Below, piece by piece: positions 7,346 to 63,911 of a DNA stretch of 64,000 nucleotides (its first letter is position 1; each line of letters begins with the position of its first letter). The stretch spans positions 134,123-198,122 of the forward strand of contig CAWERH010000013.1 of the NCBI GenBank assembly GCA_963811315.1. Reading direction: 5' to 3'. The notes beneath the pieces were generated by a model. That model had not been told where the DNA came from and made no database searches. It was given only the letters and a program-made list of their open reading frames with translations. This DNA comes from an uncultured delta proteobacterium. GTDB lineage: Bacteria; Desulfobacterota; Binatia; UBA9968. The translations under genes were made by a program, and so were the position numbers.

Positions 7346-8282
7346 TTAAACTTTAGTGAAGACTTCCTGCGCCATCCACTCCATCCGCTCGAACGTTTCA
7401 TTGATGCTCGGCTGGCGCACGTCGAAGATCATGGTATCGACTCCCGCATCGCGGTAGGCGCGGATGTCGGAGGCGATCTCTTCGGCGCCGCCCATGAAGC
7501 GGCGGCGCCGGCCCTCGATCTTTTTTTCCTTGTCGAAGAGCGAGCCTTTGAGGGCGACGCGAATTTGTTTTGGGTCGCGGCCGGCTTTTTGCGCGTACTC
7601 GGTCAGAGTGGCCATGTCTTTCTTGATGTGCTCGGGTTCGAGCGGGATCGTCGGCACGCCTCCGATCGGGTGCCAGCCGTCGCCCAACTGTCCGGCGCGC
7701 CGCAACGCTTGCTTGCTATGGCCGCCGATCCAGATGGGAATCGCCGGTTTTTGCACTGGCTTGGGAAGAAAAATAATATTGGAAAACTTGCAGTACTTAC
7801 CATTGAAGGAAGGATTGTCGCTAGTCCACAGCTCTCTGAAGGCTTGGATGTACTCGTCGGTCACTTTGCCGCGTTCTTCGTAGGGCGGCGCTTTTAGATT
7901 TTCAAACTCCTCTTTCATCCAACCGACACCCAAACCGGCGATCACCCTGCCGTTCGACAACACGTCGAGACTCGCGAGCATTTTAGCGGTGATGATCGGA
8001 TTGCGATACGGCGCGATCATCACACTGGTGATGAATTTGATTGTTTTGGTGGCGCCAGCAAGGAATCCCATGGTCGCCAACGTTTCAAGATGGTAACCAG
8101 TGCCCGGGTATTTGCCGTCGACGGTGTAGGGATAGGGCACGGAAATATCGCGCGGCACGATCACGTGATCGGCGATCGTGAGGCAATGCAGTCCCAGCGC
8201 TTCGGCGCGTTTGCGCGAAGCGCACCAAGTCGTCGGCCTTTACCGCCGCGCTCGACGCCGGCAGATGGAGTCCAAAATCCAT
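7346..8282 (-). CDS. LLM-class F420/flavin-dependent oxidoreductase, frame-shifted near 8205-8212
   Basis: N-terminus MDFGLHLPASSAAVKADDLVRFAQ (8282..) continues after a 1-nt shift as RAEALGLHCLTIADHVIVPRDISVPYPY... (frame of 7346..8164); shift at caaa run. Confidence 0.7.
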
Positions 8283-8288
8283 GGTGGT

Positions 8289-8862
8289 TTACCCTACTTG
8301 CGCAGATAAGATTTGCCGATCTTGCCGGAGCGCGATCGGTTCGCCGGTGCGGATCACGCCGTCGCTCAAGATCGCCGCCTTGAGACCGCTGCGATGTTCG
8401 AGAGCCTTGAAAATGGCCGGCAGCTTGGTGACTTTTACCAGGTGGCCACAGGGTTCGAACAAACGAATGCCGCGCATCAGGACTCCACCGACAGTGAATT
8501 CGTGACCGAGCAATTCGATCAACGGCACGCCCCGCGTCACGATATTGCGACGGGTCAGAACTCCGATCGAGTCCATAGACAGTTCCTTCGCCGCGAGTTG
8601 AAGGACTTCATCCTCGATCAGGCTCACGGCTTTGTCCGCGCGGTTCACGGCATTCCAGGACTCGCGAAAGAACCGATCGCCTTCCAAGCCGCGGTCGGCA
8701 AAAGCGCGCGCCTCCGGCACTGAGACCATCTCGCCCGCGGATTCCGGCGTAACAAAAATCGCCGCGACGCTGCCTTGCCAAGTCGCAGCTCTTCGGTTTG
8801 AAGCCGCGCCACAGCTCGAGCGGCATTTCCTCGGGCATGGGTCGAATTGCTTGTTGAGCCAT
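8289..8862 (-). CDS. MOSC domain protein (YiiM-like), frame-shifted
   Basis: C-terminal ORF has GLEGDRFF motif and MOSC-like beta-barrel region; N-terminal piece MAQQAIRPMPEEMPLELWRGFKP (start 8862, RBS GGGGAGAG) is in another frame. Confidence 0.55.
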
Positions 8863-8943
8863 ATTCTCTCCCCAAAACGACACCGGCCACTGATACTTCA
8901 GTGGCCGGTGGTTGAGCTGAAGCTGTATTTCGGACCGAGCGCT

Positions 8944-9426
8944 TTATCCAGCCGAGTCCGCAAAAAAGCGAGTGTCTTCGATCGGCGGCACCGTCTTGTT
9001 CTCTTCCGAGGAAGCGATCAGCGGCTTGCCATCGGGGCGCACGCGCATATCCTCACCGCCCTGGGCTTTCCCTTTGATGCCCGCGCCGACGCGGATCACG
9101 ACGAGATTTTCCGGGCCGGTATTGAGATAACGATAATAGGCGCCCTTGGGAATCATGACTCCCTGATGTTTTTCGACCTTGATCTCGCCGCCCTTTTCGT
9201 CGAATACGCTCATCTGGCCTTCGAGCACAATGAACGAATGGTCTTCATCGAGATGGCAGTGAATCTCGTTTTCGCCGCCCTCGTAGTTGATCTTGGTGTG
9301 AATCCACATGTTTTCGGTCTCGGCGACCAACTGCGTGATCCGGCCCTGCTTCATGTACGGGGTCCGTAGCGAAAACTTTTGCGTCTTCGGTTTCTCCGTC
9401 GGTTCTAATTTTCTTGCTGCGTTCAT
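8944..9426 (-). CDS. Cupin-domain protein
   Basis: MNAARKLEP...HCHLDEDHSFIVLEGQMSVFDEKGGEIKVEKHQGVMIPKGAYYRY; start ATG 9426 with AAGGAG RBS. Confidence 0.7.
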   Translation of the reverse strand: MNAARKLEPTEKPKTQKFSLRTPYMKQGRITQLVAETENMWIHTKINYEGGENEIHCHLDEDHSFIVLEGQMSVFDEKGGEIKVEKHQGVMIPKGAYYRYLNTGPENLVVIRVGAGIKGKAQGGEDMRVRPDGKPLIASSEENKTVPPIEDTRFFADSAG

Positions 9427-9454
9427 CGGAACTCCTTTCAAGGTGGTTGGTGAT

Positions 9455-61704: not shown

Positions 61705-61718
61705 GTCAGCTCTTGGCT

Positions 61719-62883
61719 TTAGTTCCTTACCGCCGCGACGATTTTCTCGGCGGCCTCGGCCATCGTTTCGGCGGGAATAATCGCCAGTCCTGAATCAGCC
61801 AGGATTTTTTTGCCGAGGTCGACATTGGTGCCTTGCATTCTGACCACCAGTGGAACGCTGACGCTCAATTCGCGCGCGGCATCGACGACGCCCTGGGCCA
61901 ACACGTCGCAACGCATGATGCCGCCGAAAATATTGATCAGCAGGCCGCGCACGCGGGCGTCGGCCAACAGGATCTTGAAAGCTTGCGCAACCTTTTCTTT
62001 ATCGGCGCCGCCCCCGACGTCGAGAAAGTTCGCCGGCTCGCCGCCGTAAAGCTTGATGATGTCCATCGTCGCCATTGCCAAACCGGCGCCGTTCACCATG
62101 CAGGCGATGTTGCCATCCAGCGAAATGTAGGAAAGATCGTACTTGCTCGCTTCGACTTCGCTGCGGATCTTCCTCGTCGAGATCGCGCAACGCGAGAATA
62201 TCCTTTTGGCGAAAAAACGCGTTGCTGTCGAAATTCATCTTGGCATCCAACGCCATGATTTGGCCGTCAGACGTGATGATCAGCGGATTGATTTCCGCCA
62301 GCGCAGCGTCGCACTCTTCGAAAGCGCGATAAAGCCCCTGCATGACGCCAGTCATTTTCCCGGTCAGGTTAGCGGGGATGCCGAGCGCAAACGCCAAACG
62401 TCGGCACTGAAAGGCCGCGAGCCCGATCACCGGATCGATGGTTTCCTTGAGAATCTTCTCCGGATGCCGGTCGGCAACCTCTTCAATCTCAACGCCTCCT
62501 TCGGTTGAACAAATCACCGTGACACGGGACTGGGCCCGGTCCAAAACCATGGCAAGATAGAGCTCGCGCGCAATACCGACGCCCTGCTCGACCAATACTC
62601 GCCGTACTTGGCGACCTTCCGGCCCGGTTTGATGGGTGACCAAATTGTGGCCGAGCATGGCAGCGGCTTTTTGCGCGGCTTCATCCGGGCTTTTTACCAC
62701 TTTGACCCCGCCGCCCTTGCCGCGGCCGCCGGCATGGATCTGCGCCTTGACGACGCAAACCGCGCCACCTAACTCAGCGGCAGCAGCCTTGGCTTCCTCC
62801 GGCGTCGATGCGACGATGCCGCGCGGGACGACAACGCCGAATCGCTTGAGGATCTCCTTGGCTTGAAACTCGTGTATGTTCAT
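61719..62883 (-). CDS. sucC: Succinate--CoA ligase [ADP-forming] subunit beta, frame-shifted near 62170
   Basis: [17 protein letters not shown]... ATP-grasp; C-terminal ligase-CoA domain in 61719..62099. Confidence 0.9.
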
Positions 62884-62905
62884 CGGTCCGGGATCTTCAT
62901 AAAAC

Positions 62906-62941
62906 GAGACCCTAAGACTAAACGATTAGCCTCAGGGTCTC
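62906..62941. promoter_or_regulatory. Perfect 8-bp stem hairpin (GAGACCCT-N20-AGGGTCTC) between mdh and sucC
   Basis: On minus strand followed by GTTTTAT; possible partial terminator/attenuator. Confidence 0.45.
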
Positions 62942-62964
62942 AATAACATCAGGGCTGGAAACGG

Positions 62965-63911
62965 TTAGGCCACGCCCAAGACACGATTCATCGCCTGCAC
63001 GATATCTTTTACGTGGCTAAGCGACTCATCAAAAGCTTTCTTGTCCGCGGCATTCAAATTGATATCGATGACTTTTTCCACGCCGCCGGCGCCGATCATG
63101 ACCGGCACGCAGAAATAGTAGCCGTTGACGCCATATTCGCCTTCTAACAACGCGGCGCATGGCAGAATCTCTTTCTTGTCGAAAAGATAGGCCTCGGTCA
63201 TGCGAATCGCCGCCGATGCGGGCGAAAAGTAGGCCGAACCGGTTTTTAACAACGCAACCACTTCGCCGCCGGCATTACGCACGCGCGCTTCGATCTCCTC
63301 GAGTCGTTTCGCCGGGATCAGTTTTTCAATCGGCACGCCGCCGACAATGCAGGTGCTGCGCACGGGAACCATGTCGTCGCCATGGCCGCCCAAAACCATC
63401 GCCGCCACACTGTTGACCGAAACATTAAGTTCTTTGGCAATAAATGAACGATACCGCGAAGAGTCCAAAATACCCGACTGGCCGACCACACGGTTTTTCG
63501 GAAAGCCAGTGGCGCGCTGCATCAACGTCACCATCGCATCCAGTGGATTGGTGACGACGATGACCAACGATTTGGGCGCATGTTTCTTGATGCCGTCCGC
63601 CACCGAGGTGAGGATTTTCGCGTTGGTGCCCAAGTAAATCGTCGCGGCTCATGCCCGGCTTGCGCGCGATACCTGCCGTTACAATACAAACATCCGCGCC
63701 TTCGATATCTTCGTATTTGTTGGTGCCGATAACGTTGCCGTCGAAACCCTTCAACCGGTCCGGCATGCGACAGGTCGAGCGCTTTACCTTGCGGCAACCC
63801 TTCGACGACGTCGAAAAGGACGACGTCGCCAAGCCCCTTCAAAAGCACCAAATGGGCCATCGACCCGCCGATATTGCCGGCGCCAATCAATGCAATCTTC
63901 TTCCTAGCCAT
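62965..63911 (-). CDS. mdh: Malate dehydrogenase (LDH-like type), frame-shifted near 63640-63800
   Basis: [21 protein letters not shown]... Rossmann; C-terminal 222 aa in 62965..63633; adjacent to sucCD. Confidence 0.85.

Follow-up and report, generated by a model that had tools for sequence, protein, structure and literature searches.

Approximately 27 genes in the window, the whole stretch of 64,000 nucleotides analysed here, are interrupted by one-base frame shifts, and we are highly confident that they arose as consensus errors in the deposited assembly, which is most likely a long-read metagenome of Nanopore type, not polished with short reads and probably covered thinly or unevenly. The deposited sequence contains these indels as private changes, and they explain the broken genes in full. 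A preliminary description of this DNA had likewise favoured assembly indel error over pseudogenisation, a reading now supported by five independent lines of evidence: the privacy of the indels, the repair of the reading frames, the pattern of selection, the indel spectrum and the state of other long-read assemblies. The frame shifts are a sequencing artefact without biological significance.

Between 8.2 and 63.8 kb we located ~58 one-base indels, comprising 53 extra and 5 missing bases (p=3.5e-11; Table 1), with half of the ~27 affected genes shifted two to five times. Some 50 of the indels lie within coding sequence; the ~82% found in coding DNA is roughly what uniform placement in a gene-dense window would give, and the stretch from 27.7 to 62 kb held 31 coding and 7 intergenic indels. 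Their density was uneven and over-dispersed (dispersion 3.1, p=5e-5), exceeding 2 per kb at 52-60 kb and falling to zero detected in some 8-kb stretches; 1-8 kb and 20-28 kb of the window showed no shift. Three further events, two beside the rlmN stop (59298 and 59314) and one at 18857, were not counted, being uncertain or attributable to errors in the relatives.

All 22 genes that the preliminary description had named as interrupted (lepA, sucC, mdh, rlmN, mtnP, lhr, ugd, two epimerases, GT2, PfkB, the N-terminus of lon, four of the five Amidohydro_2 genes, one LLM, MOSC, Rieske, GHKL and the 2-hydroxyacid dehydrogenase) do carry 1-nt frame shifts, visible as split Pfam domains and as indels against intact relatives. 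Its view that each gene held a single shift did not stand: there are often several, with four each in lhr, ugd, epimerase 2 and amidohydrolase D, four sites (five bases) in rlmN, three in amidohydrolase A and two each in mdh, PfkB and amidohydrolase B. Its list was also incomplete, omitting the 206-aa and 165-aa hypothetical proteins and the C-termini of the MlaC-like gene, the aldehyde oxidase and SucD.

Table 1. Features of the window affected by one-base indels, with the intact relatives (by assembly handle) and domain matches that place them.
Feature	Position	Strand	Indels in the window	Supporting observations
Luciferase-like monooxygenase (LLM)	7349..8288	-	one extra base, 8207-8210	Pfam Bac_luciferase match without N-terminus; net +1 vs 7/7 covering relatives; repaired ORF 313 aa, the length of the L008 orthologue
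MOSC-domain protein	8292..8943	-	one extra base, 8783-8794	net +1 vs 7/7 relatives; tblastn junction 8786-8788; repaired ORF 217 aa
Amidohydrolase A	9458..10552	-	three extra bases: 9656-9663, 9870-9875, 10387-10391	Amidohydro_2 profile positions 16-145 and 217-289 in separate frames; +1 at each site vs 8/8 relatives (353 aa); ORF continuous once repaired
GHKL ATPase	12601..14189	+	one missing base, 12947-12951	net -1 vs 9/9 relatives; HATPase_c N-terminal fragment out of frame with 410-aa remainder; repaired ORF 530 aa vs 526 aa in L137
Rieske oxygenase	14227..15433	-	one extra base, 14509-14512	+1 vs 8/8 relatives; relatives 385-401 aa, window fragment 317 aa
Amidohydrolase B	15485..16659	+	two extra bases: 15927-15935, 16009	+1 per site vs 7/7 relatives; Pfam match from profile position 78; repaired ORF 391 aa
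Amidohydrolase C	16748..17900	+	one extra base, 17536-17537	profile positions 64-173 and 219-289 in separate frames; +1 vs 3/3 relatives; repaired ORF 384 aa vs 385 aa in L009
Amidohydrolase D	18096..19276	-	extra bases 18241, 18600, 18662; missing base in T run at 18974	three Pfam pieces in three frames; indels called vs L009 and L137
2-hydroxyacid dehydrogenase	26954..28058	+	one extra base, 28005-28006	+1 vs 3/3 relatives; intact at 352 aa in L001
206-aa hypothetical protein	28094..28721	-	one extra base, 28581	absent from L001 and L002; repaired ORF 209 aa
lon	31870..34284	+	one extra base, 31937-31940; first 17 codons cut off	absent from four relatives (L001-L004), whose Lon has 804 aa
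Small hypothetical ORF, possibly affected	36966-37226		base missing at 37171	all covering relatives against window
165-aa hypothetical protein	42119..42614	+	+1 at 42323, -1 at 42332, +1 at 42352; net +1	L001, L136 and L002 concordant at 3/3 sites
MlaC-like gene remnant	42695..42809	-	extra base 42719; deletion of ~458 bp at 42790-42793	
Aldehyde oxidase / xanthine dehydrogenase Mo-binding subunit	43236..45494	-	extra base 43274; last ~12 codons altered	752 aa in window vs 742 aa in relatives; repaired ORF 744 aa, stop to stop
lhr helicase	45691..50089	-	extra bases 47762, 48651, 48717, 49003	DEAD, WH_Lhr, DEAD_assoc and WH3/WH4 domains scattered across 4 ORFs in different frames; indels called vs L136; repair gives a single ORF, 1465 aa
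lepA	51604..53557	-	one extra base, 52388	GTP_EFTU/D2 part and EFG_C/LepA_C part in separate frames; indel vs L136
Epimerase 1	53398..54340	-	one extra base, 53680	308 aa in relatives
Epimerase 2	54322..55351	-	extra bases 54336, 54475, 55150, 55208	315 aa in relatives; 3 to 4 relatives (L133, L134, L135, L136) concordant per site
ugd	55263..56576	-	extra bases 55312, 55319-55322, 55339; missing base 56267	-1 junction at ~56269 from 94 full-length Ugd homologues; 3 to 4 relatives concordant per site
GT2 glycosyltransferase	56569..57542	-	extra bases 57257, 56573	Glycos_transf_2 profile positions 1-82 and 83-167 in separate frames; both bases absent from L133 and L135; 56573 produces an apparent GT2-Ugd fusion ORF
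PfkB kinase	57529..58440	-	extra bases 57583, 58103-58104	Pfam match from profile position 126; L133 and L135 without both bases; relative 301 aa
mtnP	58433..59294	-	one extra base, 58842	PNP_UDP_1 profile positions 2-152 and 140-232 in separate frames; support from L133 and P0285
rlmN	59298..60412	-	five extra bases, four sites: 59542-59543, 59920, 59979, 60178	RlmN_N and Radical_SAM in separate frames; indels called vs L133
sucD	60835..61704	-	one extra base, 60860-60862; C-terminus altered	absent from L133 and L005; 289 aa in window vs 290-293 aa in relatives
sucC	61719..62883	-	one extra base, ~62159-62161	ATP-grasp_2 and Ligase_CoA in separate frames; +1 junction from 13 SucC homologues
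mdh	62965..63911	-	extra bases ~63631-63634 (GG to GGG) and ~63743-63746 (TT to TTT, coding strand)	sites located by reading three frames
Intergenic extra single bases, window-specific	28089, 29116, 31408, 34298, 41964, 51598, 60378			all covering relatives against window

The affected genes are intact in same-species and related assemblies of 74-97% DNA identity. At most coding sites the 2 to 9 covering relatives were unanimous against the window; in the left 12 kb the same held at most sites for the 3 to 9 relatives covering them. Coverage in this assembly comparison was down to one relative at the lhr, lepA, mtnP and rlmN sites and none at mdh; the single relative across 44-53.6 kb is itself error-prone, and indel polarity there was taken from the integrity of the reading frames. 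Aligned three ways with L001 and L002, relatives from its own species (96% identity), the window had 10 private 1-nt insertions, whereas the private indels of the two relatives numbered 0 in coding and 31 in intergenic sequence. The window errors thus strike coding and intergenic DNA alike and the private indels of its relatives in that alignment wholly avoid coding sequence, a difference in split that was significant in the three-way alignment (Fisher p=2.5e-5) and in a second comparison (p=2.7e-8).

The damage is also found in databases. A single 240,179-bp NCBI/ENA contig yields seven ORFs of the window as exact products, four being frame-shift fragments: Ugd (326 aa), SucC (126 aa), MtnP (186 aa), Rieske (317 aa), amidohydrolase (147 aa), SucD (289 aa) and aldehyde oxidase (752 aa). 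The shortened, 787-aa form of Lon is recorded from it as well. With the broken products standing verbatim in a protein collection, the errors belong to the published sequence. A contig scan across genomes turned up none of the same species and a best match of 74% amino-acid identity, and a metagenome scan with LepA returned relatives at no more than 74% among the matches listed. Exact look-ups with the window's Lon and with a 97-aa ORF gave no match, nor did a homology query made of four intact window proteins joined together.

Deleting 46 bases and adding 3 restored 25 rebuilt ORFs as single ORFs at the lengths of their relatives, with no internal stops in the repaired ORFs. After repair, LepA, SucC, Mdh, RlmN, MtnP and Ugd each gave an end-to-end match to an NCBIfam equivalog model in one stretch and above the curated cut-off: LepA to TIGR01393 (positions 2-593 of 595, 982 bits), SucC to NF001913 (1-386 of 388), the 314-aa Mdh to TIGR01763 (1-303 of 305), RlmN to TIGR00048 (6-349 of 355), MtnP to TIGR01694 and Ugd to TIGR03026 across all 413 positions. 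In a separate test, the base added at 18974 regained the N-terminus of amidohydrolase D (MPGVLDADTHIAE...) in a 393-aa ORF.

Substitution patterns show that purifying selection acted normally on the genes. Third codon positions took 74% and 78% of window-specific substitutions compared with 71-76% in relatives, and 72 of 92 such substitutions in PfkB, GT2, ugd and epimerase 2 combined. Relaxed selection in the affected genes, in the form of substitutions spread across codon positions, was not found; the pattern is that of the intact relatives, and since the third-position excess is kept inside the broken genes, selection on them was not relaxed. The three-way alignment counted 149 window-specific substitutions against 404 and 480 in the two relatives.

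The preliminary description had placed at least two shifts in homopolymers, which the tabulated sites do not support: of 32 insertions with an exact position, 22 differ from both adjacent bases, and runs of 4 or more contain none. Once inserted, 22 of these bases stood alone, five made a run of 2 and five a run of 3, with a random expectation of 56%, 28% and 12% (p=0.16), so that insertion placement is indistinguishable from random as to homopolymers. Neither of its two examples held: the LLM shift, put near 8207, maps to 8207-8210 in a GCGT context (7/7 relatives), and the one put near 56585 is a lone G at 56573 between T and T. No flanking dinucleotide or methylation-like motif stood out clearly at the insertion sites (best nominal p=0.04 over 16 tests). 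Nanopore errors of the textbook type are deletions in homopolymers, and the sole indel in a long run, the deletion at 18974, is the only one fitting that type. Context-free insertions in place of such deletions, together with the over-dispersed density, do not sit easily with consensus error.

Other long-read assemblies carry damage of the same kind. One of them, contig_3034, has extra bases of its own that split lepA and lhr elsewhere than in the window, and no pair of window and contig_3034 counterpart proteins was identical. Across 18.7 kb, 14 single-base indels separate MFD08691.bin.1.5 from contig_25198, and in MFD04850.bin.2.104 the private changes are 9 extra bases and 2 missing ones, whereas short-read relatives showed no private insertions in genes. 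The window belongs to a Binatia (Binatota) contig of a soil bacterium with 56% GC. For its left part, the closest GTDB relatives are MFD MAGs. Microflora Danica MAGs, Nanopore-only assemblies made with Flye (metaFlye) and one round of Medaka (PMC12313526), have private single-base insertions of the same kind as the window, which might be likened to this assembly type through its relatives only. The Microflora Danica authors checked their catalogue for Nanopore-associated errors via coding density and found low values to go mostly with long homopolymers of low-GC archaeal MAGs (PMC12313526); the window differs in its GC content and in having no homopolymer link.

More generally, one-base indels likewise fragment conserved genes and truncate the predicted proteins in Nanopore and PacBio CLR assemblies, as measured by the IDEEL test, and as in the window such errors depend on the assembly and are absent from same-species short-read assemblies. 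Indels disrupt gene calls in Nanopore assemblies and metagenomes below ~40-fold coverage (PMC9262707), and a further study reports frame-shift correction for long-read MAGs (PMC8103633). Unlike the classical homopolymer indels of long reads, those of the window favour insertion ~10:1 over deletion with no homopolymer or motif preference; nor are they concentrated in runs, as in the classical Nanopore, 454 or Ion Torrent error. We infer both the sequencing platform and the cause of the insertion bias. Under consensus error, the consensus step would have left ~58 errors of one base each over 56 kb; almost all would be spurious additions of any of the bases, placed regardless of sequence context. 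Each extra base would shift the frame, leading gene callers to give two to five fragments per gene, and the shifts would yield false fusions (GT2 with Ugd) and changed termini in gene calls.

Genuine recent mass pseudogenisation, with real frame shifts in a degenerating lineage or a base-adding mutator, would also leave indels in the deposited sequence, and the ~458-bp MlaC-like deletion could be a real loss. Reductive genomes such as Mycobacterium leprae and young endosymbionts resemble the window in their many frame-shifted genes, but the window shows neither relaxed selection nor in-frame stops, has no first- or second-position substitution excess on its lineage, and its core genes are struck several times each (lepA, sucC, sucD, mdh, rlmN, lon) while same-species relatives at 96% identity are intact. 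Bacterial pseudogenes have a deletion bias, opposite to the 53:5 insertion bias found here, and larger lesions are limited to the MlaC-like deletion. With the same damage at other sites of the same genes in other long-read assemblies, decay would have had to arise independently and identically in all the long-read assemblies while sparing all the short-read ones, and we consider it very improbable. Equally hard to credit is that the extra bases are real, in a lineage or relic-DNA pool recently riddled by a random single-base-adding process that outpaced selection. A pipeline-specific failure that adds single bases, irrespective of context, to many public Nanopore-only soil MAGs, GTDB species representatives included, is more likely than this. 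Recoding, by which programmed ribosomal frameshifting or transcriptional slippage would bypass the shifts in vivo and leave the genes functional as written, has a precedent in that one report describes some apparent bacterial frameshift pseudogenes as bona fide genes (PMC11017572). Here, up to five sites per gene would need bypass, no site is common to any relative, slippery motifs are absent, 22 of 32 insertion sites have no repeat at all, and runs of 4 or more and clearly enriched flanking dinucleotides are lacking; we regard its probability as negligible.

Within assembly error, a collapsed strain mixture, in which variants of co-occurring strains confused the consensus caller into adding bases, is a minority possibility that we hold tentatively. 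Polysaccharide-synthesis loci are expected to vary between strains, and the patchy indel density peaks in such a cluster at 52-60 kb; soil metagenomes furthermore hold many close relatives. The scarcity of window-specific substitutions (149 vs 404 and 480) and their lack of a first- or second-position excess argue against a noisy chimeric consensus.

Users of this contig or of similar long-read soil MAGs will meet fragmented gene calls, false fusions and false pseudogenes; protein databases absorb the fragments, and pathway and completeness estimates are skewed. Because the errors are not in homopolymers, error filters tuned to homopolymers would miss those of the window. Other findings from the window that rest on an ORF boundary, split gene, fusion or odd terminus should first be checked against the sites in Table 1. 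The MlaC-like deletion is another kind of event and may be real. An indel at 22891 in an OCD-like gene (21.8-23 kb) was dropped as a window deletion; it is private to the relative L001, two other relatives side with the window, and from these sequences the gene is probably intact.

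Tracking of the reading frame by codon usage, with intact genes as the training set, detected approximately 35 same-strand frame switches in the window (56% G+C, genes densely packed), and Pfam scans of the ORF pieces showed the pattern of one domain continuing in adjoining frames at consecutive profile coordinates (see table). All genes named as frame-shifted in the preliminary description were affected, and the fifth amidohydrolase and second luciferase-like monooxygenase (LLM), which it implied were intact, are so. The Lon protein had a 787-aa database entry at 100% identity, which comes from a single NCBI and ENA contig of 240,179 bp; other close Lon relatives were 804 aa and labelled Candidatus Binatia or Binatota. 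The window is accordingly a Binatia contig, and its source is very probably a metagenome-assembled genome (MAG). Exact protein look-ups recovered further window ORFs verbatim from the same contig record, therefore the frame shifts belong to the public record and are not later introductions.

Relatives for comparison were reached via several proteins. Through Lon homologues, contig_3034 of ENA ERZ25039492 (L001 and L136, 96% DNA identity, window 21.85–55.4 kb), a MEGAHIT contig (L002, 95.6% identity) and two JGI contigs (L003, L004) were located. Ugd homologues provided L133, L134 and L135, with 87–94% identity over 53.6–61.4 kb and every gene intact in this region. L005 was reached by an exact Ndk match and contig_25198 (L137) via a protein in the same cluster as the Rieske oxygenase. 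For the left 15 kb, a scan of GTDB representative genomes provided nine Binatia-type relatives (70–92% DNA identity), a mix of short-read assemblies and Microflora Danica (MFD) long-read MAGs. An indel catalogue was compiled by placing every pairwise alignment gap on the window coordinates and adding tblastn junctions. Most coding sites showed an identical net +1 or −1 relative to the window in every covering relative (two to nine per site). In total, approximately 58 one-base events were detected in the window (53 extra and five missing bases), about 50 of which were inside about 27 genes. The single shift per gene described previously was an undercount, because many genes hold several events, including lhr, ugd and rlmN. 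An apparent GT2-Ugd fusion ORF was produced by two events together, the absence of a base at 56267 and an extra base at 56573. In ugd itself, three extra bases occur within 28 nt at the 3′ end, a local error cluster after which the frame is regained following approximately nine scrambled codons.

Features of the window and its relatives, with frame, event and protein-length data (window coordinates unless a contig is named; profile positions are those found in separate frames by Pfam; exact matches are to the 240,179-bp contig record)
Feature	Position	Profile positions	One-base events	Repaired length	Exact match
Amidohydro_2		16–145 and 217–289			
Glycos_transf_2		1–82 and 83–167			
PNP_UDP_1		2–152 and 140–232			
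DEAD_assoc		1–125 and 120–191			
GTP_EFTU/D2 vs EFG_C/LepA_C		separate frames			
ATP-grasp_2 vs Ligase_CoA		separate frames			
lhr			4	1465 aa	
ugd			4		326 aa
ugd 3′ error cluster	55312–55339		3		
epimerase 2			4		
rlmN			5 bases at 4 sites		
amidohydrolase A			3		
amidohydrolase C				384 aa	
amidohydrolase D			4		
amidohydrolase piece					147 aa
fifth amidohydrolase	38318–39412				
LLM				313 aa	
second LLM	4088–5077				
GHKL ATPase				530 aa	
MtnP				287 aa	186 aa (N-terminal piece)
SucC				401 aa, stop to stop	126 aa (C-terminal piece)
SucD					289 aa
Rieske					317 aa
aldehyde oxidase					752 aa
lon	31921–34284				
GT2-Ugd fusion ORF	56222–57337				
missing bases	12950, 18974, 37171, 42332, 56267				
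genes split by private insertions (lepA, lhr, amidohydrolase, OCD-like gene, LLM)	L136 2028–3823 and 5371–9806; L137 (ERZ25039568); L006; L009				
~458-bp deletion	42790–42793 (L001 20810–21267; L002 15083–15340)				
intergenic 106-bp segment	39488–39593				
in-frame 21-bp insertion	26122–26142				
solute-binding-protein remnant	7150–7269 (−)				

The immediate sequence context was assessed for 32 insertions whose exact position could be fixed from relatives with ≥93% identity. Homopolymer placement, as proposed in the preliminary description, was not borne out: 22 of the 32 inserted bases matched neither neighbour, five created a run of two, five a run of three and none a run of four or more, against 56%, 28%, 12% and 5%, respectively, expected if both base and site were random. 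The LLM shift assigned to “caaa” near 8207 was instead placed at 8207–8210 in a GCGT context, and that assigned to aaa/ggg near 56585 was instead the G at 56573, with T on either side. Inserted bases were A (n = 6), C (n = 9), G (n = 8) and T (n = 9), and no flanking dinucleotide at the insertion sites clearly stood out. Otherwise, runs are touched only by the deletion at 18974, in a T run, and by the two mdh insertions, which convert GG to GGG and TT to TTT. Event density was uneven (dispersion index 3.1, p = 5e-5), with 19 events in 52–60 kb, one each in the 32–36 and 36–40 kb bins and none detected in 0–8 kb and 20–28 kb, of which 0–7.3 kb was judged by ORF integrity only. Such a pattern would most readily be put down to uneven coverage or a strain mixture. 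More speculatively, the insertion bias could stem from basecalling and polishing models that do not match each other; both 4 kHz and 5 kHz runs are mentioned in the MFD paper (PMC12313526).

Similar damage was found in other long-read assemblies. In contig_3034, separate extra bases interrupt lepA at 52439 and 52051 (called as 361, 102 and 152 aa) and lhr at 49405 and 46467 (called as 231, 1007 and 241 aa), and the window reads through all four sites. MFD08691.bin.1.5 (L009) and contig_25198 are separated, despite 98.5% identity, by 14 single-base indels over 18.7 kb, all outside homopolymers, and MFD04850.bin.2.104 (L006) has nine private extra bases versus two missing, several in TPR genes. 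No private extra bases were found within genes of the short-read relatives. L006 and L009 are GTDB representative genomes, therefore the problem reaches beyond this contig. The MFD MAGs derive from Nanopore reads alone, with Flye as the assembler and a single round of Medaka polishing (PMC12313526), and indel-fragmented gene calls are documented for Nanopore assemblies at modest coverage (PMC9262707).

The alternative is that the broken genes are undergoing genuine pseudogenisation. When the window was aligned with L001 and L002 over 15 kb (three-way alignment), it had the fewest private substitutions (149 versus 404 and 480) yet 10 private single-base insertions, several within genes, whereas the private indels of L001 and L002 were all intergenic or at gene ends (Fisher’s exact test, p = 2.5e-5 for the three-way region, 2.7e-8 for 27.7–62 kb). 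Window-private substitutions were at third codon positions in 74% (27.7–42.8 kb) and 78% (54.3–58.3 kb) of cases, compared with 71–76% in relatives, and in 72 of 92 cases in the multiply broken PfkB, GT2, ugd and epimerase 2 genes, an excess not expected of a gene drifting long enough to gain four or five indels. In bacterial pseudogenes, DNA is reported to be lost and not gained, and 53 insertions against five deletions (p = 3.5e-11) is a technical signature. When 46 inferred extra bases were deleted and three missing bases added, single ORFs were restored with lengths as in relatives, amidohydrolase D being completed by one base added at 18974. Repaired LepA, SucC, Mdh, RlmN, MtnP and Ugd each gave an unbroken end-to-end match to an NCBIfam model that exceeded the curated cut-off, with LepA covering positions 2–593 of 595 in TIGR01393 (982 bits). 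Private indels, restored ORFs, a retained third-position excess, an insertion-heavy spectrum and the same damage in other long-read assemblies all bear out the original reading of assembly indel error over pseudogenisation. The frame shifts are assembly artefacts in the deposited sequence and no biological feature, and the site list can be used to repair gene models ahead of further interpretation of the window.

Other differences from relatives were larger. The window lacks approximately 458 bp that two same-species relatives have, and with it most of a 200-aa MlaC-like gene; the junction has CGAC microhomology, and this may be a real strain-level loss and not a consensus error. A further segment, common to the window and L002 and missing in contig_3034, may be a small insertion/deletion polymorphism or mobile element, and a small hypothetical gene (89 aa) contains an in-frame insertion relative to contig_3034. 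The lon gene holds 68 of the 149 window-specific substitutions of 27.7–42.8 kb, 58 at third positions, a locally higher divergence that may mark a recombination tract. A 40-aa remnant (residues 133–172 of 396, 75% identity) is all that was detected of a solute-binding-protein gene located after the LLM gene in L009 and L137; synteny with both relatives stops at ~7.3 kb. A probable catabolic gene cluster occupies the gene-dense block at 8.9–20.3 kb, which includes four Amidohydro_2 genes, a Rieske oxygenase, a cupin, two TPR proteins, a GHKL ATPase and an NMT1-type binding protein and keeps its gene order in several Binatia MAGs (L006–L009, L137).
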